NCBI RefSeq assembly: GCF_003018255.1
Contig: NZ_CP027440.1
Length of the DNA stretch: 64,000 nt
From: Escherichia coli
GTDB lineage: Bacteria; Pseudomonadota; Gammaproteobacteria; Enterobacterales; Enterobacteriaceae
Strand: one strand, 5' to 3'
Shown here: positions 4,504 to 46,566 of the stretch, in pieces
How positions within the stretch are numbered: position 1 is the stretch's first letter
Layout: each line of letters opens with the position of its first letter
Position numbers and translations under genes: made by a program
The notes under the pieces: generated by a model
Told to the model about the DNA's origin: nothing
Databases searched by the model: none
What the model saw: the letters and a program-made list of their open reading frames with translations, nothing else

Positions 4504-7500
4504 ATGAAGTTTTTACCCTATATTTTTCTTCTCTGTTGTGGTCTTTGGTCGACCATAAGTTTCGCAGACGGAGATTACATCGAATATCGTGGCATCAGTA
4601 GTAACAACCGTGTCACACTTGATCCACTACGTCTGAGCAACAAGGAATTACGTTGGCTCGCGAGCAAAAAAAATCTTGTGATTGCAGTACACAAGTCCCA
4701 AACAGCTACGTTGTTGCATACCGATTCGCAGCAACGGATTCGTGGTATTAATGCTGATTATTTAAATCTTTTAAAAAGAGCGTTAAATATCAAATTAACA
4801 CTCCGGGAATACGCAGATCATCAAAAAGCAATGGACGCGCTGGAAGACGGTGAAGTTGATATAGTGTTATCACATTTAGTTGCTTCGCCGCCTCTTAATG
4901 ATGACATTGCTGCAACCAATCCTCTGATAATTACCTTTCCGGCGCTGGTCACTACCCTTCACGATTCAATGCGACCGCTTACCTCATCAAAACCAGTAAA
5001 TATTGCTCGAGTAGCAAATTATCCCCCAGACGAGGTAATTCATCAATCATTTCCAAAAGCAACAATTATCTCTTTTACAAATTTATATCAGGCATTAGCA
5101 TCCGTCTCAGCCGGACAGAATGATTACTTTATTGGTAGTAACATCATTACCAGCAGTATGATTTCCCGTTATTTTACTCACTCCTTAAATGTAGTGAAGT
5201 ATTATAACTCACCGCGTCAATATAACTTTTTATTAACCAGAAAAGATTCTATCGTTCTTAATGAAGTACTCAATCGATTTGTTGATGCTTTAACAAATGA
5301 AGTTCGCTATGAAGTATCACAAAATTGGCTTGATACAGGAAATCTGGCCTTTCTGAACAAACCATTAGAACTCACTGAACATGAAAAACAGTGGATTAAG
5401 CAGCATCCCGATTTAAAGGTGCTAGAAAATCCTTACTCGCCACCCTATTCTATGACAGATGAAACTGGCTCAGTTCGGGGCGTGATGGGTGATATTCTTA
5501 ATATTATTACCTTGCAAACAGGTTTAAATTTTTCTCCGATCACCGTTTCACACAATATTCATGCTGGGACACAGCTTAACCCCGGTGGATGGGATATATT
5601 GCCCGCCGCTATTTATAGTGAAGATCGAGAAAATAATGTTTCATTTGCTGAAGCCTTCATAACAACGCCTTACGTTTTTGTCATGCAAAAAGCGCCTGAC
5701 AGTGAACAAACATTAAAAAAAGGAATGAAAGTTGCCATTCCCTATTATTATGAGCTTCATTCGCAATTAAAAGAGATGTATCCGGAGGTAGAGTGGATAA
5801 AAGTCGATAACGCCAGCGCTGCATTTCACAAGGTTAAAGAAGGTGAACTTGATGCTCTGGTCGCGACACAGTTAAATTCGCGTTACATGATCGACCATTA
5901 CTATCCTAATGAACTTTATCATTTTCTTATTCCCGGCGTTCAGAATGCATCACTTTCGTTCGCTTTTCCTCGCGGAGAACCGGAACTTAAGGATATTATT
6001 AATAAAGCACTGAATGCAATTCCCCCAAGCGAAGTTCTGCGCCTGACCGAAAAATGGATTAAAATGCCCAATGTGACCATTGACACATGGGACCTCTATA
6101 GCGAGCAATTTTATATTGTTACGACATTATCCGTTTTATTAGTTGGCAGTAGCCTTTTATGGGGATTCTACCTGTTACGCTCAGTTCGTCGTCGTAAAGT
6201 TATTCAGGGTGATTTAGAAAACCAAATATCATTCCGGAAAGCGCTCTCGGATTCCTTACCGAATCCAACTTATGTTGTAAACTGGCAAGGTAATGTCATT
6301 AGTCACAATAGTGCATTTGAACATTATTTCACTGCTGATTACTATAAAAATGCAATGTTACCATTAGAAAACAGTGAATCCCCCTTTAAAGATGTTTTTT
6401 CTAATACGCATGAAGTCACAGCAGAAACGAAAGAAAACCGAACAATATACACACAGGTATTTGAAATTGATAATGGCATCGAGAAAAGATGCATTAATCA
6501 CTGGCATACCTTATGTAATCTGCCAGCAAGCGAACATGCTGTTTATATTTGTGGTTGGCAAGATATTACCGAGACGCGTGATTTAATTCATGCACTCGAA
6601 GTAGAGAGAAATAAAGCGATCAATGCAACTGTCGCAAAAAGCCAGTTTCTGGCAACAATGAGTCACGAAATAAGAACACCAATAAGCTCCATTATGGGCT
6701 TCCTGGAACTTCTGTCGGGTTCTGGTCTTAGCAAGGAACAACGGGTGGAGGCGATTTCACTTGCCTACGCCACCGGACAATCACTCCTCGGCTTAATTGG
6801 TGAAATCCTTGATGTCGACAAAATTGAATCGGGTAACTATCAACTTCAACCACAATGGGTCGATATCCCTACTTTAGTCCAGAACACTTGTCACTCTTTC
6901 GGTGCGATTGCTGCAAGCAAATCGATCGCATTAAGTTGCAGCAGTACGCTTCCTGAACGCTACCTGGTTAAGATCGACCCTCAGGCGTTTAAGCAGGTCT
7001 TATCTAATTTACTGAGTAATGCTCTCAAATTTACTACCGAGGGGGCAGTAAAAATTACGACCTCCCTGGGTCACATTGATGACAACCACGCTGTTATCAA
7101 AATGACGATTATGGATTCTGGAAGTGGATTATCGCAGGAAGAACAACAACAACTGTTTAAACGCTATAGCCAAACAAGTGCAGGTCGTCAGCAAACAGGT
7201 TCTGGTTTAGGCTTAATGATCTGCAAAGAATTAATTAAAAACATGCAGGGCGATTTGTCATTAGAAAGTCATCCAGGCATAGGAACGATATTTACGATCA
7301 CAATCCCGGTAGAAATTACCCAACAAGTGGCGGCTGTCGAGGCAAAAGCAGAACAACCTATAACACTACCTGAAAAGTTGAGCATATTAATCGCGGATGA
7401 TCATCCGACCAACAGGCTATTACTCAAACGCCAGCTAAATCTATTAGGATATGATGTTGATGAAGCCACTGATGGTGTGCAAGCGCTACACAAAGTCAGT

Positions 7501-8097
7501 ATGCAACATTATGATCTGCTTATTACTGACGTTAATATGCCGAATATGGATGGTTTTGAGTTGACTCGCAAACTCCGAGAGCAAAATTCTTCCTTACCCA
7601 TCTGGGGGCTTACAGCCAACGCACAGGCTAACGAACGTGAAAAAGGGTTAAATTGCGGCATGAACTTATGTTTGTTCAAACCGTTGACTCTGGATGTACT
7701 GAAAACACATTTAAGTCAGTTACACCAGGTTGCGCATATTGCACCTCAGTATCGCCACCTTGATATCGAGGCCCTGAAGAATAATACGGCGAATGATCTA
7801 CAACTGATGCAGGAGATTCTCATGACTTTCCAGCATGAAACGCATAAAGATCTACCCGCTGCGTTTCATGCACTAGAAGCTGGCGATAACAGAACTTTCC
7901 ATCAGTGTATTCATCGCATCCACGGTGCGGCTAACATCCTGAATTTGCAAAAGTTGATTAATATTAGCCACCAGTTAGAAATAACACCTGTTTCAGATGA
8001 CAGTAAGCCTGAAATTCTTCAGTTGCTGAACTCTGTAAAAGAACACATTGCAGAGCTGGACCAGGAGATTACTGTTTTCTGTCAGCAAAATGACTAA
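4504..8097 (+). CDS. evgS: Hybrid sensor histidine kinase EvgS
   Basis: 1197-aa ORF; signal peptide, large periplasmic region, TM, H-box (MSHEIRTPISS), receiver domain (LIADDHPTN...DVNMPNMDGF) and C-terminal HPt (HRIHGAANIL). Confidence 0.95.
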   Translation: MKFLPYIFLLCCGLWSTISFADGDYIEYRGISSNNRVTLDPLRLSNKELRWLASKKNLVIAVHKSQTATLLHTDSQQRIRGINADYLNLLKRALNIKLTLREYADHQKAMDALEDGEVDIVLSHLVASPPLNDDIAATNPLIITFPALVTTLHDSMRPLTSSKPVNIARVANYPPDEVIHQSFPKATIISFTNLYQALASVSAGQNDYFIGSNIITSSMISRYFTHSLNVVKYYNSPRQYNFLLTRKDSIVLNEVLNRFVDALTNEVRYEVSQNWLDTGNLAFLNKPLELTEHEKQWIKQHPDLKVLENPYSPPYSMTDETGSVRGVMGDILNIITLQTGLNFSPITVSHNIHAGTQLNPGGWDILPAAIYSEDRENNVSFAEAFITTPYVFVMQKAPDSEQTLKKGMKVAIPYYYELHSQLKEMYPEVEWIKVDNASAAFHKVKEGELDALVATQLNSRYMIDHYYPNELYHFLIPGVQNASLSFAFPRGEPELKDIINKALNAIPPSEVLRLTEKWIKMPNVTIDTWDLYSEQFYIVTTLSVLLVGSSLLWGFYLLRSVRRRKVIQGDLENQISFRKALSDSLPNPTYVVNWQGNVISHNSAFEHYFTADYYKNAMLPLENSESPFKDVFSNTHEVTAETKENRTIYTQVFEIDNGIEKRCINHWHTLCNLPASEHAVYICGWQDITETRDLIHALEVERNKAINATVAKSQFLATMSHEIRTPISSIMGFLELLSGSGLSKEQRVEAISLAYATGQSLLGLIGEILDVDKIESGNYQLQPQWVDIPTLVQNTCHSFGAIAASKSIALSCSSTLPERYLVKIDPQAFKQVLSNLLSNALKFTTEGAVKITTSLGHIDDNHAVIKMTIMDSGSGLSQEEQQQLFKRYSQTSAGRQQTGSGLGLMICKELIKNMQGDLSLESHPGIGTIFTITIPVEITQQVAAVEAKAEQPITLPEKLSILIADDHPTNRLLLKRQLNLLGYDVDEATDGVQALHKVSMQHYDLLITDVNMPNMDGFELTRKLREQNSSLPIWGLTANAQANEREKGLNCGMNLCLFKPLTLDVLKTHLSQLHQVAHIAPQYRHLDIEALKNNTANDLQLMQEILMTFQHETHKDLPAAFHALEAGDNRTFHQCIHRIHGAANILNLQKLINISHQLEITPVSDDSKPEILQLLNSVKEHIAELDQEITVFCQQND

Positions 8098-40214: not shown

Positions 40215-41099
40215 CTACTGCGCCAACGCCGCCAGCAGTTTAACCAGCGCGGGCGTCACCTGCTGCGTTTCATAAACAATATATAAGTCTGCCGGGATGC
40301 GTTCTTTGAGCGGACGGAATATGACACCGGGCCAGTTCATCTGCGCGTAGCTGTCCGCTATCAATGTGATACCAATACCCATACTGACCATGGCGAGTAC
40401 CGTTTGCGGTTCATTAACTTCGCGAATAACAACCGGTGAAAATCCCACCTGCTGGCAAACTCGCTGCAAAAAATCCCAGTCAGTGTACACGGGCGGCATT
40501 GTAACGAAATACTCGTCACGTAGCGCTTCCAGCGGGACGGTGGAAAATGATGAGAGATGATGCTCTTCAGGCATCGCCACCAGAAACGCCGATTCATGCA
40601 ACCGTAAGCTGGTAAAACCAGTCGGTGGTTCTGTCGCCATTCGCCAGATCCCGGCATCAAGTTCGCGGCGTTCCAGCAAGGCCATTTGCATCGCAGGCAT
40701 CTTTTCGCGAAACAGAACTTCAACGTTAGGATTTTCTCTAAGGAATCGCCGCATAACCGGGCGCATCCGTCCCCACATTGCCGTTCCCACAACCCCGAGT
40801 TCAATCCGCCCTGCTTCTCCCCGACCTATTTGTTCAACCCGAGCCAATACATTATTTGCATTCACCAACAATCGACGCGATTCTTCCATCAAGATTTTGC
40901 CCGCGTGTGTCAGTACGACGCTGCGCGAATGGCGAATAAAAAGCTGCGTGCCGAGTTGATTTTCCAGCTCTTTAATATGAATGCTGAGCGGAGGCTGAGA
41001 CATATTTAAACGCGCTGCTGCGCGACCAAAATGCAACTCTTCCGCTACGGCAAGAAAATAACGGAGCAACTTAAGATCTGTTCTGTATACGCGTTCCAT
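40215..41099 (-). CDS. xapR: LysR-family transcriptional activator of xapAB
   Basis: N-terminal LysR HTH (LKLLRYFLAVAEELHFGRAAARLNMSQPPLS); start at MERVYRTDL (294 aa), with an in-frame ATG at 41114 as an alternative. Confidence 0.88.
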   Translation of the reverse strand: MERVYRTDLKLLRYFLAVAEELHFGRAAARLNMSQPPLSIHIKELENQLGTQLFIRHSRSVVLTHAGKILMEESRRLLVNANNVLARVEQIGRGEAGRIELGVVGTAMWGRMRPVMRRFLRENPNVEVLFREKMPAMQMALLERRELDAGIWRMATEPPTGFTSLRLHESAFLVAMPEEHHLSSFSTVPLEALRDEYFVTMPPVYTDWDFLQRVCQQVGFSPVVIREVNEPQTVLAMVSMGIGITLIADSYAQMNWPGVIFRPLKERIPADLYIVYETQQVTPALVKLLAALAQ

Positions 41100-41350
41100 A
41101 ATTAAGTGCTCCATATAATAAATACATCGTATTAAATTATCATGGCATAAAGTATTTCACCACCAGATATCCGACATACATAAACACAATGGATAATATA
41201 CCCGGCAATACATTTGGAACAGGAATAGGTAATCGCACGATTGTAAACAAAGCACCAATGCCAAAACCAACGCCAGAAGAAAATAAAATATCTTTCACTA
41301 ATTAACCTTTATCATAAAAGCAGCCCCAAGGAACAGAGCTGCGAATCCTT

Positions 41351-42607
41351 TTAATGTGTAACTGAACGATGCGTTATCTTTTCAGGGTCATGGTTATATT
41401 TAAACCCAAAGAAAAATATCACTGCGAGGAAAAGAGCATACCCTGCAAACATCAGCCAAATGGTATGCCAATCTTTTACGCCATCCACCGAGAAGTAATC
41501 CACTGCCATACCGCTCAGAATCGAGCCAACCCATGCGCCGACGCCATTTACCATCGTCATAAAAAGGCCCTGGGCGCTGGCACGAATGCTGGAATCAACT
41601 TCCTGTTCGACAAAGACCGAACCAGAAATATTGAAGAAATCGAATGCACAACCGTAAACAATCATCGACAGCAACAGCAAAATAAACCCGGTTGGTGATG
41701 GATCGCCATAGGCAAAGAAGCCAAAGCGCAGCGTCCACGCCACCATACTCATCAGCATGACGGTTTTAATACCGAAACGCTTCAAAAAGAACGGTATCGT
41801 CAGAATGAAACCGACTTCAGCCATCTGTGAAACTGACAGTAAAATGGACGGGTATTTCACCACGAAGCTATCAGCAAACTCAGGATTACGGGCGAAATCA
41901 TGCAGGAACGGGTTGCCAAAAACGTTGGTAATTTGCAGCACCGCACCCAGCATCATGGCGAAGAGGAAAAAGATAGCCATGCGTGGATTTTTAAACAGCA
42001 CGAAGGCATCCAGACCCAGCTTGCTGGCAAGCGATGTAGTCGCTTTTTTCTCCGCAACCGGAATCTTCGGCAAAGTCAGCGCATAAGCCGACAGCAGCAA
42101 TGACGCACCGGACGCGATATACAGCTGCAGACTACTCAATTCCAGATGCAGCAGGCTTACTGCCCACATGGCGACAATGAACCCCACCGTACCAAAAACG
42201 CGAATGGGCGGGAAAGCGGTCACCGGGTCAAGCCCTGCCTGGGCAAGACAGGAATAAGAGACGCTGTTCGATAACGCAATAGTCGGCATAAACGCCATCG
42301 CATTGACTAACATCACCCAAAACATCATATCCGGATCAGTTACGGATGCCGCATAAAAAAGTACGCCCGCACACACCAGGTGACACAGCATGTATGCACG
42401 TTCTGCACGCAGCCATTTGTCTGCGATGATCCCCATTATACCAGGCATAATAATCGCGGCGATCCCTTTGGAACTGTAAACCATGCCAACATTAGCGCCG
42501 GTGAAATGAAGGGTATTAATCATGTAAGAACCGAGGGTAACCAGCCAGCTCCCCCAGATAAAATATTGCAAAAAGGACATTACCTTTAAGCGCAAAGCGA
42601 TGCTCAT
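41351..42607 (-). CDS. xapB: Xanthosine/nucleoside:H+ symporter (MFS)
   Basis: 418-aa polytopic ORF upstream of xapA on the same strand. Confidence 0.92.
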   Translation of the reverse strand: MSIALRLKVMSFLQYFIWGSWLVTLGSYMINTLHFTGANVGMVYSSKGIAAIIMPGIMGIIADKWLRAERAYMLCHLVCAGVLFYAASVTDPDMMFWVMLVNAMAFMPTIALSNSVSYSCLAQAGLDPVTAFPPIRVFGTVGFIVAMWAVSLLHLELSSLQLYIASGASLLLSAYALTLPKIPVAEKKATTSLASKLGLDAFVLFKNPRMAIFFLFAMMLGAVLQITNVFGNPFLHDFARNPEFADSFVVKYPSILLSVSQMAEVGFILTIPFFLKRFGIKTVMLMSMVAWTLRFGFFAYGDPSPTGFILLLLSMIVYGCAFDFFNISGSVFVEQEVDSSIRASAQGLFMTMVNGVGAWVGSILSGMAVDYFSVDGVKDWHTIWLMFAGYALFLAVIFFFGFKYNHDPEKITHRSVTH

Positions 42608-42667: not shown

Positions 42668-43501
42668 TCAGGCAATTTTGCGCAGAAAGCCGCAAATAAG
42701 ATTAATAAAGTTTTGCTTTGAGAGTTCCGCTGCTGCCAGCGTTTGGGCATGAGAAAGCTTCACGTCACTCAGACCTTCCGCCATGTTGGTAATCGCAGAG
42801 ACCGCAACGACTTTAAGTTCGCAATGGCGAGCTGAAATAACCTCAGGCACCACAGACATACCAACAACATCCCCACCAATAATTTGCATCATACGAATTT
42901 CCGCCGCAGTCTCGAAATTCGGCCCCGGATACGAGACGAACACGCCCTCCGTCAGAGGGAACCCCTCTTCTTTCGCCACTTTTTGTAACAGTGCGCGGTA
43001 TTCCGCATCGTAGGCATTCGCCAGCGAGAAGAAGCGCTCACCAAAACGTTCATCATTAAGACCCACCATCGGCGTTCCCGGCATGGTGTTGATGTGATCT
43101 TTCAATGCGACCAGACTGCCGGCCCCCACTTCAGGACGCAGTGAGCCAGCCGCATTGGTGCAGAACAGCAACTCGCAGCCCAGCAACTTAAAGGTACGGA
43201 TTGCATCCGTCATGATGGTCATCCCACGACCTTCGTAGAAATGTCCGCGACCTTTCATGCACGCCACTGGCACCCCCTGGAGATACCCCAGCACCAGCTC
43301 ACCCGCATGACCGTGTACGGTACTTACCGGGAACCCAGGCAGCTTTTCGTAGGAAATTGCGACCGCGTTCTCAATCTGATCGGCCAGCGCGCCCAGCCCG
43401 GAACCTAACATAAAGGCCACTCGTGGCGTGAAATCAGGTTTATAAGTCTTGATAATATCTACGCAATACAGTGGGTTATGAGAAAACTGAGCCTGAGACA
43501 T
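42668..43501 (-). CDS. xapA: Purine nucleoside phosphorylase II (xanthosine phosphorylase)
   Basis: 277-aa ORF of the PNP/MTAP family. Confidence 0.93.
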   Translation of the reverse strand: MSQAQFSHNPLYCVDIIKTYKPDFTPRVAFMLGSGLGALADQIENAVAISYEKLPGFPVSTVHGHAGELVLGYLQGVPVACMKGRGHFYEGRGMTIMTDAIRTFKLLGCELLFCTNAAGSLRPEVGAGSLVALKDHINTMPGTPMVGLNDERFGERFFSLANAYDAEYRALLQKVAKEEGFPLTEGVFVSYPGPNFETAAEIRMMQIIGGDVVGMSVVPEVISARHCELKVVAVSAITNMAEGLSDVKLSHAQTLAAAELSKQNFINLICGFLRKIA

Positions 43502-43749
43502 ATATATCCTTTTTTTGTAGGGTGGAATCTAACGCCTTTTTATAACGAGATTGCCCTACCTCATACCAATACACTTTTTTCATGTATCCGATAGTTATTC
43601 GATATCGATATATTTATATTTTTTCACTATTAATAGGCTGAAAAAACTGTATTGGTACTCTCCTTTCCCTTGCATTAACAATATGCCGCTTTTAATCAAC
43701 CTTTTTATTAAGCAATCAACTAATAACGATCGGCATAGGGAATTATGCT

Positions 43750-44514
43750 ATGAAAAAACATCTTTTTACTCTGACACTCTCTTCTGTATTGGCGATACCA
43801 GCAGTATCCCATGCAGAATTTAAAGGCGGTTTTGCTGATATAGGTATTCATTATCTTGACTGGACTAGCAGAACCACTGAGAAATCGTCGACCAAATCAC
43901 ACAAAGATGATTTTGGATATCTGGAACTGGAAGGCGGCGCTAACTTTAGTTGGGGAGAAATGTACGGGTTCTTCGACTGGGAAAACTTTTATAATGATCG
44001 TCATGATAAACCGGGTAGCGAGCAGCGTTATACCTTTAAAAATACCAACCGTATTTACCTGGGTGACACCGGATTTAATCTCTACTTGCATGCGTATGGC
44101 ACCTACGGTTCTGCGAATCGCGTGAATTTCCATGACGATATGTTCCTTTACGGTATCGGCTACAATTTCACCGGCAGCGGTTGGTGGTTCAAACCGTTCT
44201 TTGCAAAACGCTATACAGACCAAACCTATTATACCGGCGATAACGGTTATGTCGCCGGTTGGGTTGCAGGTTACAGCTTTATGCTGGGCAGTGAGAAATT
44301 CACCCTCACCAACTGGAACGAGTACGAGTTTGATCGTGATGCCACCTACGCGGCAGGTAATGGCGGCAAAGAAGGTCTGAACGGTGCCGTCGCACTTTGG
44401 TGGAATGCAACTTCACACATCACCACAGGAATTCAGTATCGTTATGCGGATGACAAACTGGGCGAAGATTTTTACCAGGATGCAATAATCTACTCCATCA
44501 AATTTAATTTCTGA
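43750..44514 (+). CDS. yfeN: Putative outer-membrane beta-barrel protein
   Basis: 254-aa ORF; signal peptide (MKKHLFTLTLSSVLAIPAVSHA), aromatic-rich alternating pattern, C-terminal Phe (IKFNF). Confidence 0.82.
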   Translation: MKKHLFTLTLSSVLAIPAVSHAEFKGGFADIGIHYLDWTSRTTEKSSTKSHKDDFGYLELEGGANFSWGEMYGFFDWENFYNDRHDKPGSEQRYTFKNTNRIYLGDTGFNLYLHAYGTYGSANRVNFHDDMFLYGIGYNFTGSGWWFKPFFAKRYTDQTYYTGDNGYVAGWVAGYSFMLGSEKFTLTNWNEYEFDRDATYAAGNGGKEGLNGAVALWWNATSHITTGIQYRYADDKLGEDFYQDAIIYSIKFNF

Positions 44515-44551
44515 TTGATTACTGCCGGGGCTCCCGGCAGTATGAATAGCT

Positions 44552-45478
44552 CTATATCTGATACAGCGGATCCCCTTCCCGCCCAGCCATTAGCGCACGG
44601 CCCTGGCCTCGTACCACTTCCCATAACGCTTGTGCGGCGGTGGAAAGTGAACGGTTCTTCCTGCGCACCAGCATCAACTGGCGTTCCACCACCGGCGTAA
44701 TGCGCTTTACCACCAGCGGGCTACCTTCAGGTAACGGCAGCGCCAGTGCGGGAAGAATACTAATGCCGATGCCTGCGGCTACCATCGGGAACAGCGTCGC
44801 CGGATGACCAATCTCCTGCACAATATTCGCCTGAATACCGTTGCGCGCCAGAGCTGCGTCAATCAGCGGTCGGCTGCCTGACGCGTAATCCTGCAACACC
44901 AATTTCGCTCCCTGTAATGCCTGCCAGGGTACATAATCTTCCGCGGCTAAAGCGCTATCGCGATGGCAAAGCAAGAAGAAAGGCTCGGAAAGAATCGCTT
45001 CACATTGCAGATCGCTCACTGGGCCTGGATCGATGACGATGCCAAAATCGACATCTCCCTGGCGAATACTTTCCATCACCCACTGCTGCGGACGATCGTG
45101 CAGGACAAACTGAATATCGGGATAGCGGCGATGGCTTTCAGCAATGCATTGCGGAATAAGATGCGCGGAAATGGTCTGGCTGGCAGCGACCCGAACTTTT
45201 CCGCTCAGTTGTTGCCCCATACGCCCGGTATCGCGCAACGTGCTGTTAAGTTCATCCAGCAGTCGCTCAAGACGCAAAGCCAACTGCTGCCCTGCATCTG
45301 TAAGCACCACTTCACGCGTGGTTCTGTCCAGCAGGCGAACACCAGTATGATTTTCCAGCTCCTTCACACTGTGACTTACTGCCGACTGACTCAGGCCGAT
45401 ACGCTCTCCTGCACGACTAAAACTTTTCTCCTGCGCTACTGTGACGAAAACCTTTAATTGTTTTAAAGAATAATTCAT
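44552..45478 (-). CDS. yfeR: LysR-family transcriptional regulator
   Basis: 308-aa ORF with N-terminal LysR HTH ([34 protein letters not shown]). Confidence 0.88.
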
Positions 45479-45567
45479 CTGTTTTTTTCATGAATGGATG
45501 CAATAAATCAATTTTATTTCTCAAACTGGAAGAAGCACAATAGAACCATCGATCATCTGGAGTCTTT

Positions 45568-46566
45568 ATGAAACTTTTTCGTATCCTCGATCCTTTCACC
45601 TTAACCCTGATCACGGTGGTGTTGCTGGCCTCTTTCTTTCCGGCCAGAGGCGATTTCGTCCCCTTCTTTGAAAATCTGACCACTGCAGCGATTGCTCTGC
45701 TGTTCTTTATGCACGGCGCGAAGTTGTCGCGTGAGGCGATTATTGCTGGCGGTGGGCACTGGCGACTGCATTTGTGGGTAATGTGCAGCACCTTCGTATT
45801 GTTTCCGATTCTGGGCGTGCTGTTTGCCTGGTGGAAACCGGTAAATGTCGACCCGATGCTCTACTCCGGTTTTCTCTACTTGTGCATTCTCCCCGCTACC
45901 GTGCAGTCTGCAATCGCCTTTACTTCAATGGCGGGCGGTAACGTCGCGGCAGCGGTTTGTTCTGCGTCAGCATCCAGCCTGTTGGGGATTTTCCTTTCAC
46001 CATTGCTGGTTGGTCTGGTGATGAATGTTCACGGTGCGGGAGGCAGCCTTGAGCAGGTCGGTAAAATTATGCTGCAATTGCTACTGCCGTTTGTGTTGGG
46101 GCATCTTTCCCGGCCGTGGATTGGTGACTGGGTGTCGCGCAATAAAAAATGGATTGCGAAAACTGACCAGACGTCCATTCTGTTGGTGGTTTATACGGCA
46201 TTCAGCGAAGCCGTCGTTAACGGTATCTGGCACAAAGTTGGCTGGGGATCATTGCTGTTTATCGTGGTGGTCAGTTGCGTTCTTCTGGCTATCGTGATTG
46301 TAGTTAACGTCTTTATGGCACGCCGACTGGGCTTCAATAAGGCAGATGAAATTACTATCGTCTTTTGTGGTTCGAAAAAGAGTCTGGCAAATGGCATCCC
46401 GATGGCAAACATTCTGTTCCCCACATCGGTGATCGGTATGATGGTGCTGCCCCTGATGATTTTCCATCAGATCCAATTGATGGTCTGTGCGGTGCTGGCG
46501 CGTCGATACAAACGCCAGACCGAACAGTTACAGGCGCAGCAGGAAAGCAGCGCCGATAAAGCTTAA
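45568..46566 (+). CDS. yfeH: Putative BASS-family (bile acid:sodium symporter-like) transporter
   Basis: 332-aa polytopic ORF divergent from yfeR. Confidence 0.85.
   Translation: MKLFRILDPFTLTLITVVLLASFFPARGDFVPFFENLTTAAIALLFFMHGAKLSREAIIAGGGHWRLHLWVMCSTFVLFPILGVLFAWWKPVNVDPMLYSGFLYLCILPATVQSAIAFTSMAGGNVAAAVCSASASSLLGIFLSPLLVGLVMNVHGAGGSLEQVGKIMLQLLLPFVLGHLSRPWIGDWVSRNKKWIAKTDQTSILLVVYTAFSEAVVNGIWHKVGWGSLLFIVVVSCVLLAIVIVVNVFMARRLGFNKADEITIVFCGSKKSLANGIPMANILFPTSVIGMMVLPLMIFHQIQLMVCAVLARRYKRQTEQLQAQQESSADKA

Follow-up and report, generated by a model that had tools for sequence, protein, structure and literature searches.

The gene yfeN of Escherichia coli is transcribed away from the xanthosine operon and encodes one of the outer-membrane proteins of E. 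coli K-12 that have no assigned function. Its position raises the question of whether YfeN is the channel by which nucleosides cross the outer membrane on their way to the Xap pathway, as the first-pass annotation of the window (the whole analyzed stretch of 64,000 nucleotides) had suggested by position only. The gene is an ordinary one, and what it broadly encodes had been annotated before: its product is assigned to the Tsx/OmpK family, whose name already implies a nucleoside channel, as a putative outer-membrane porin. The product is 97% identical to K-12 b2408 (annotated as "putative outer membrane porin YfeN"), and in RefSeq it goes by "outer membrane protein OmpK" as well as by "nucleoside-specific channel-forming Tsx family protein". 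The question of its function is modestly interesting, and the searchable literature holds no experiment on YfeN function (transport, localization, or XapR dependence) and links xanthosine to neither Tsx nor YfeN at the outer membrane. What we add here is a recurrent linkage of this branch to nucleoside genes and a specific prediction that yfeN is co-regulated with xapAB through a mirrored operator-like element.

The coding sequence of yfeN, the sole open reading frame at 43750..44514 on the plus strand, starts with ATG, ends with a stop codon at 44512-44514, and specifies 254 amino acids including the signal peptide. A ribosome-binding site, TAGGGA, can be read from the sequence at 43736..43741 (plus strand), 8 nt upstream of the ATG, and its core AGGGA/GGA is kept among the aligned spacers. 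The N-terminus, MKKHLFTLTLSSVLAIPAVSHA|EF, has by eye the order of charged, hydrophobic, and small residues of a Sec/SPase I signal peptide, predicted from the sequence to span residues 1-22 (43750..43815, plus strand) with cleavage after SHA; in the structure model the same residues are helical, have low pLDDT, and lie outside the barrel. Aromatic residues make up 52 of the 232 residues of the mature protein (22%) and glycine 12.5%, cysteine is absent, and the chain closes with ...IKFNF, the terminal phenylalanine being the aromatic end typical for outer-membrane barrels. The signal peptide, the aromatic-rich sequence, and the terminal Phe noted in the first reading of the window are thus all found.

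The xap genes all lie on the minus strand: xapA, encoding xanthosine phosphorylase, at 42668..43501 (TIGR01699, 532 bits); xapB, encoding the xanthosine:H+ symporter of the NHS family, at 41351..42607 (PF03825, Nuc_H_symport; TIGR00889); and xapR, encoding the LysR-type activator of xapAB, at 40215..41114 (NF007439, 533 bits), whose start in the K-12 annotation is 15 nt further in. The divergent transcription of yfeN from the phosphorylase and permease genes, also pointed out earlier, holds, with a distance of 248 bp. On the other side, yfeN is convergent with yfeR, a LysR-family gene that together with the divergent yfeH (an SBF-like transporter) occupies 44552-46566 and forms a regulator-transporter pair of its own. 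The loci of Escherichia, Pseudocitrobacter, Salmonella, and Entomohabitans have retained the pair together with yfeN, as have two of the three from Citrobacter; the C. sedlakii locus has only yfeH, and the Phytobacter locus neither gene. The 37-bp gap between yfeN and yfeR contains a GC-rich hairpin, CTGCCGGG-GCT-CCCGGCAG, at 44522..44540, with an 8-bp stem and a 3-nt loop. It may serve as a terminator, although neither strand shows a T-run and the terminator scan made no call there.

The first-pass annotation had taken YfeN for a candidate outer-membrane barrel and named structure prediction as a check. The Pfam profile PF03502 (Channel_Tsx) matches YfeN with 2-244 of its 244 positions (E 4e-44; 151.6 bits, the gathering threshold being 27.2), the NCBIfam equivalog NF008574, a model without a functional name, scores 454.7 bits, and the predicted fold is a confidently modeled 12-stranded barrel whose nearest solved structure is Tsx. 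The barrel is borne out by both the family match and the fold; its location in the outer membrane is the expected one. Overall, YfeN is almost certainly an outer-membrane barrel with the Tsx fold.

The fold of YfeN is Tsx-like, but its sequence is not. BLASTP of YfeN against E. coli Tsx gave nothing significant (best E 0.024), and searches against all PDB sequences, either by phmmer with YfeN alone or with a profile built from 71 family sequences, missed Tsx and returned NanC as the only match, a weak one. Tsx was recovered only through fold comparison and profile-profile alignment, where hhalign of the YfeN and Tsx family alignments gave 88% probability and E 2.8e-6 for 203 columns, anchored on the motif YLExE...W.(D/E).YG(F/Y).D. 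Compared with Tsx, the nucleoside channel of E. coli (PDB 1TLW, PF03502), YfeN is 40 residues shorter and has a structure-based identity of 13-14%; YfeN is thus a Tsx-fold barrel of a divergent branch. Tsx belongs to class TC 1.B.10, and its specificity mutations map to F27, G28, S217, G239, and G240 of the mature protein. F27 and G28 (F49 and G50 of the precursor) stand opposite E44 and K45 of YfeN, in a low-confidence stretch of the hhalign alignment, and the C-terminal third, the region of Tsx S217, G239, and G240, was left unaligned. The Tsx specificity residues are therefore not evidently kept in YfeN, the chemistry of its binding site is probably unlike that of Tsx, and a substrate for YfeN would not be transferable from Tsx. 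Since Pragia and Rahnella have both true Tsx and YfeN-like genes, YfeN appears to be an additional channel and not a replacement of Tsx. The two genes also differ in setting: tsx lies near 431 kb in K-12 and is under CytR/CRP control (PMC3454398), whereas yfeN stands beside xapA with an operator-like element common to xapA, and its control is predicted from sequence only.

Of the two groups, Tsx and the proteins that carry the name OmpK, YfeN stands nearer to the latter, as judged by RefSeq names and by a neighbor-joining tree in which Tsx is a long-branch outgroup. The proteins that RefSeq calls OmpK in Halomonadaceae, Endozoicomonas, and Shewanella share 42-50% identity with YfeN, and it is on such RefSeq-named proteins that the subfamily placement is based. 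Several OmpK-type genes have nupC-deo beside them, whereas the partner genes of E. coli yfeN are xapAB. Substrate-specific porins that lie beside a catabolic operon and are induced by the same regulator are represented by LamB of the mal regulon, NanC, and KdgM; YfeN differs from these in belonging to the Tsx family, and its co-regulation with xapAB is a prediction drawn from the DNA alone. In V. cholerae, the gene named ompK is repressed by CytR together with udp, cdd, and nupC (PMC4581735), an observation that we count, at the level of the family, in favor of a nucleoside channel.

To what extent the genomic context supports such a role was assessed at 80 yfeN loci, which came from a scan of one genome per species and were then searched with the proteins of the window, their neighbors being clustered. 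The divergent arrangement of xapR-xapB-xapA and yfeN is found in Escherichia, Pseudocitrobacter, three Citrobacter, Phytobacter, and Entomohabitans, and in Salmonella too, so that yfeN adjoins the xap genes and their regulatory region across Enterobacteriaceae. In two Limnobaculum species and Pragia (Budviciaceae), xapRBA is followed by a divergent deoB and then by yfeN, the gene between xapA and yfeN matching the phosphopentomutase equivalog of deoB at about 555 bits. In Rahnella, a gene for an NHS nucleoside permease follows yfeN at 48 bp on the same strand. The E. coli genomes of the IAI39 type (16 of 5426 complete genomes) have a two-gene insert between xapA and yfeN; one gene encodes a further NHS permease and the other a protein of 309 aa that has a nucleoside 2-deoxyribosyltransferase domain. 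By contrast, nucleoside genes are absent from the surroundings of about 60 orthologs, which in Yersinia, Xenorhabdus, Photorhabdus, Proteus, Providencia, and Morganella lie between ampG and cyoA, and the ortholog of Budvicia lies between modE and modF with no xap genes nearby.

Among nine distant relatives that were sampled (42-56% identity), four (42-49% identical) are inside nucleoside gene clusters and five have no nucleoside-gene neighbors. The Shewanella cluster reads nupC-ompK-deoC-deoA-deoB-deoD; Vreelandella and one further genome have ompK-nupC-deoCABD-cdd with ompK first; and in Endozoicomonas two Tsx-family genes in tandem adjoin deoD-deoB-deoC. In the neighbor-joining tree, the deo-linked forms are deepest, the xap-linked Enterobacteriaceae form one clade, and Rahnella with Budviciaceae are its sister. 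These comparisons provide independent evidence by which this YfeN branch is tied, as far as gene context can tell, to nucleoside uptake and catabolism, and since the partners and gene orders differ, hitch-hiking would not explain the linkage.

Several features of these loci may be mentioned in addition. The phosphopentomutase-type gene, the second of its kind, is at 6282-7508 of locus L008, 6265-7494 of L010, and 5997-7232 of L036, and in L008 it has a clear hairpin-plus-T terminator on its 3' side; co-transcription of yfeN with deoB in Budviciaceae was considered and is ruled out by the hairpin with its T-run and by a gap of 490-770 bp. Because XapA of Limnobaculum and Pragia is 84-88% identical to E. 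coli XapA, the xap genes there seem to have been horizontally transferred. The IAI39-type insert occupies 5281-8000 of locus L005 (E. coli SCPM-O-B-8794), is the same in IAI39 and CE10, and has a regulatory layout of its own, CCAATAC...GATATCAAT...GTATTGG. The adjacent Channel_Tsx genes of Endozoicomonas (L084, 6014-7756) encode proteins of 282 and 251 aa with very different sequences, the first of which falls outside the YfeN clade in the tree. In Vreelandella (L086), the ortholog stands at the head of nupC-deoCABD-cdd and diverges from cyoA; the cytochrome bo oxidase operon thus adjoins the ortholog in two very different groups, Vreelandella and Yersinia/Morganellaceae (e.g., L013 and L067), and this adjacency may go back to an earlier gene order.

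The regulatory prediction comes from the AT-rich divergent intergenic region of 248 bp between xapA and yfeN (43502..43749). A repeat search found in it an inverted repeat of 19 nt, 95% complementary, with arms at 43564-43582 and 43639-43657. The left arm (43564..43582), TGAAAAAAGTGTATTGGTA on the xapA (minus) strand, overlaps the -35 position of the putative xapA promoter, whose -10-like hexamer, TATAAA, is a pattern match at 43541..43546 on the minus strand; the corresponding TTTATA block is kept in the spacer alignment. The right arm (43639..43657), TGAAAAAACTGTATTGGTA on the plus strand, contains TGTATTGG at 43648-43655 and is followed by the putative -10-like hexamer of the yfeN promoter, AACAAT (43677..43682, plus strand), again a pattern match. 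Read toward its gene, each arm has the form TGAAAAAA(G/C)TGTATTGGTA, followed by 19 nt and then by the -10-like hexamer, one set pointing to xapA and the other to yfeN. The pattern TGTATTGGTA-N19-(-10-like) occurs twice in the 64 kb, both times in this spacer, with zero instances expected by chance. Between the arms there are two perfect palindromes: TCGATATCGA at 43599..43608, a candidate upstream LysR-type site whose GATATCGAT block is kept across genera, and CTATTAATAG at 43625..43634, which is partly kept in the spacer alignment.

The promoter PxapAB has two XapR sites, one of them partly over the -35 element (PMC7205307), and the left arm takes the position of this published -35-overlapping site. 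For this reason we infer that the element in the spacer is a XapR site and that the right arm is the equivalent activator site for yfeN, so that yfeN is probably induced together with xapAB. A simple sigma-70 scan made no call anywhere in the spacer and so gave no canonical promoter for yfeN; the lack of one fits an activator-dependent promoter, yet is no evidence for one. A sigma-54 reading of TTGG...TTGCA was rejected, the GG-to-GC spacing being 17 instead of 10.

In the alignment of nine spacers, the conserved islands are CCAATAC, which is invariant, and GTATTG. In a wider comparison, every one of the 13 xap-linked loci, and Budvicia as well, has the unit TATTGG-N21-(-10-like) upstream of yfeN at a distance of 100-183 bp, and the -10 position in other genera is taken by hexamers such as AATAAT, AATACT, and TATTAT. 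The TATTGG unit of Limnobaculum, Pragia, and Rahnella is 110-132 bp upstream of yfeN and far from any xapA promoter, and therefore it belongs to yfeN. The complete unit is absent from the remaining loci (Xenorhabdus, Yersinia, Morganellaceae): three Photorhabdus loci have TATTGG near -110 with no -10-like hexamer after it, and in Xenorhabdus, Yersinia, and other Morganellaceae the roughly 240 nt next to the start of the yfeN ortholog are free of TATTGG.

Taken together, the following mechanism is proposed. YfeN would be exported by the Sec pathway and fold into a monomeric 12-stranded outer-membrane beta-barrel of the YfeN/OmpK branch of the Tsx superfamily, most likely working as a narrow, substrate-specific diffusion channel for nucleosides. 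In Escherichia, Salmonella, and Citrobacter, it would most likely be the outer-membrane entry for purine nucleosides, which after passing YfeN would be imported by XapB and cleaved by XapA. As the yfeN promoter mirrors the XapR-dependent promoter of xapA, induction along with xapAB is predicted. We favor this account, in which YfeN is both a nucleoside channel and the co-induced entry step of the Xap pathway, and regard it as fairly likely. For its parts taken separately, a nucleoside channel is the likely nature of YfeN, and it is quite possible that the channel is the XapR-controlled entry step of the pathway. The outer-membrane location, the permeation of nucleosides (xanthosine), and the binding of XapR with induction of yfeN are what we infer from the evidence above. 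Compared with its original basis in gene position, the idea of a nucleoside channel has gained the Channel_Tsx match, the Tsx-nearest fold, the recurrent linkage to nucleoside genes, and the mirrored promoter element; it is weakened by Tsx specificity residues that are not evidently kept and by about 60 species with no nucleoside neighbors. We also count against it that the promoter box follows one clade and that Budvicia has the box with no xap genes nearby, so the association of the box with xap could be partly phylogenetic. Finally, Tsx and the general porins may already be enough for nucleoside entry, which is a point against a role of YfeN.

A less likely alternative is that YfeN is a Tsx-fold barrel with a non-nucleoside substrate or with no transport role, such as a surface receptor or a structural protein, and that it came to lie beside xapA by co-transfer of a block. 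The remote homology to Tsx, with specificity positions not evidently conserved, agrees with this, as does the location of most orthologs of Yersiniaceae and Morganellaceae between ampG and cyoA. So does the pattern of divergence in the window: compared with K-12 (L001), pS is highest over xapB, xapA, and yfeN (0.20, 0.28, and 0.375) and only 0.09-0.12 in the flanking xapR, yfeR, and yfeH, and the stretch over xapB-xapA-yfeN is only 90-95% identical in most E. coli genomes. An allelic block of old or foreign origin, carrying xapA and yfeN together, would have this appearance, and the presence of both genes in one high-pS block suggests joint inheritance. A role as a receptor would agree with the namesake OmpK, the Vibrio receptor of phage KVP40, which is known mainly as a phage receptor; however, the Keio mutant in yfeN has no phenotype against the BASEL phages (PMC8594841). 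Horizontal transfer is known to have moved the xap cluster repeatedly (PMC2395238), again in line with co-transfer. On the other hand, co-transfer of one block does not account for a nucleoside linkage seen with three partner sets (xap, an NHS permease, and nupC-deo-cdd) and in five or more gene orders, and the promoter element common to yfeN and xapA also speaks against this alternative.

It is more improbable still that YfeN, though a nucleoside channel, has in effect a redundant or silent gene in E. coli, poorly expressed, masked by Tsx and OmpF/OmpC, and free of XapR control, with the mirrored element serving only xapA, as its distal site. The lack of a canonical promoter in the sigma-70 scan of the AT-rich spacer is consistent with poor expression, and the right arm could be the second, upstream XapR site that PxapAB is reported to need (PMC7205307). 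Moreover, the searchable literature reports no phenotype of a yfeN mutant, and the coexistence of Tsx and YfeN-like genes in Pragia and Rahnella is in agreement with redundancy. Against a distal xapA site stands the TATTGG unit upstream of yfeN in Limnobaculum, Pragia, and Rahnella, away from xapA. A silent gene is also at variance with the divergence of yfeN from K-12, where pS is 0.375 and the non-synonymous divergence 0.014, giving pN/pS of 0.038; yfeN is under strong purifying selection. The same ratio, together with the full-length matches to curated models, the confident structure prediction, the orthologs throughout Enterobacterales, and the occurrence of the 1601-nt region in 5416 of 5426 complete E. 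coli genomes (with at least 80% query coverage in 4054), refutes the reading of yfeN as a chance frame or decaying pseudogene, to which we assign practically no probability.

The nucleoside channel co-induced with xapAB, the account preferred here, would extend the xap circuit, modeled as a bistable switch with no outer-membrane component (PMC7205307), by a step in the outer membrane, and would fill a minor gap in the knowledge of a model organism. It proposes for YfeN a substrate class (nucleosides), an inducer (xanthosine, acting via XapR), and an operator (43639-43657). In its most specific form, which we put forward tentatively, YfeN would be the missing channel selective for xanthosine and purine nucleosides, a Tsx branch with another site chemistry that is switched by XapR via the mirrored operator, and xapR-xapBA-yfeN would be a complete mobile module. 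If this is true, the module for uptake and catabolism is horizontally mobile and spans the envelope. General understanding of outer-membrane channels would stay unchanged. The YfeN/OmpK branch is widespread and owes its names and annotations to an analogy with Tsx, to which it has almost no similarity in sequence; the validity of this analogy bears on many genome annotations.

Other published records of yfeN, among the papers covered, report no function. In an evolved cellobiose strain, the yfeN mutation S121P was neutral, and YfeN was described as a putative Tsx-family protein (PMC7797564); a transposon screen for phage receptors has yfeN among the membrane-protein genes listed (PMC7414163); and in a study of Crp in Yersinia pestis, yfeN appears in an expression table only (PMC6867900).

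The spacer contains some further sequences that resemble sites of other regulators. Just upstream of the -10-like hexamer of yfeN, cTTGCATT at 43669-43676 matches at seven of eight positions the CytR octamer, GTTGCATT. This CytR-like octamer is present in the spacers of Escherichia and Pseudocitrobacter and absent from that of Salmonella, and no CRP-like sites are evident in the spacer. Binding of HusR (YnfL) in vitro gave a peak in the xapA/yfeN spacer, and only xapA was reported to be HusR-dependent (PMC12844172); control of yfeN by HusR was rejected, its sole support being adjacency to this in vitro peak while the reported dependence concerns xapA and not yfeN. The HusR boxes given for the peak in PMC12844172 map to 43543-43558 and 43953-43968. 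The former lies between the -10 hexamer of xapA and the left arm and in this strain differs from K-12 at 5 of 16 positions, and the latter is inside the yfeN coding sequence.
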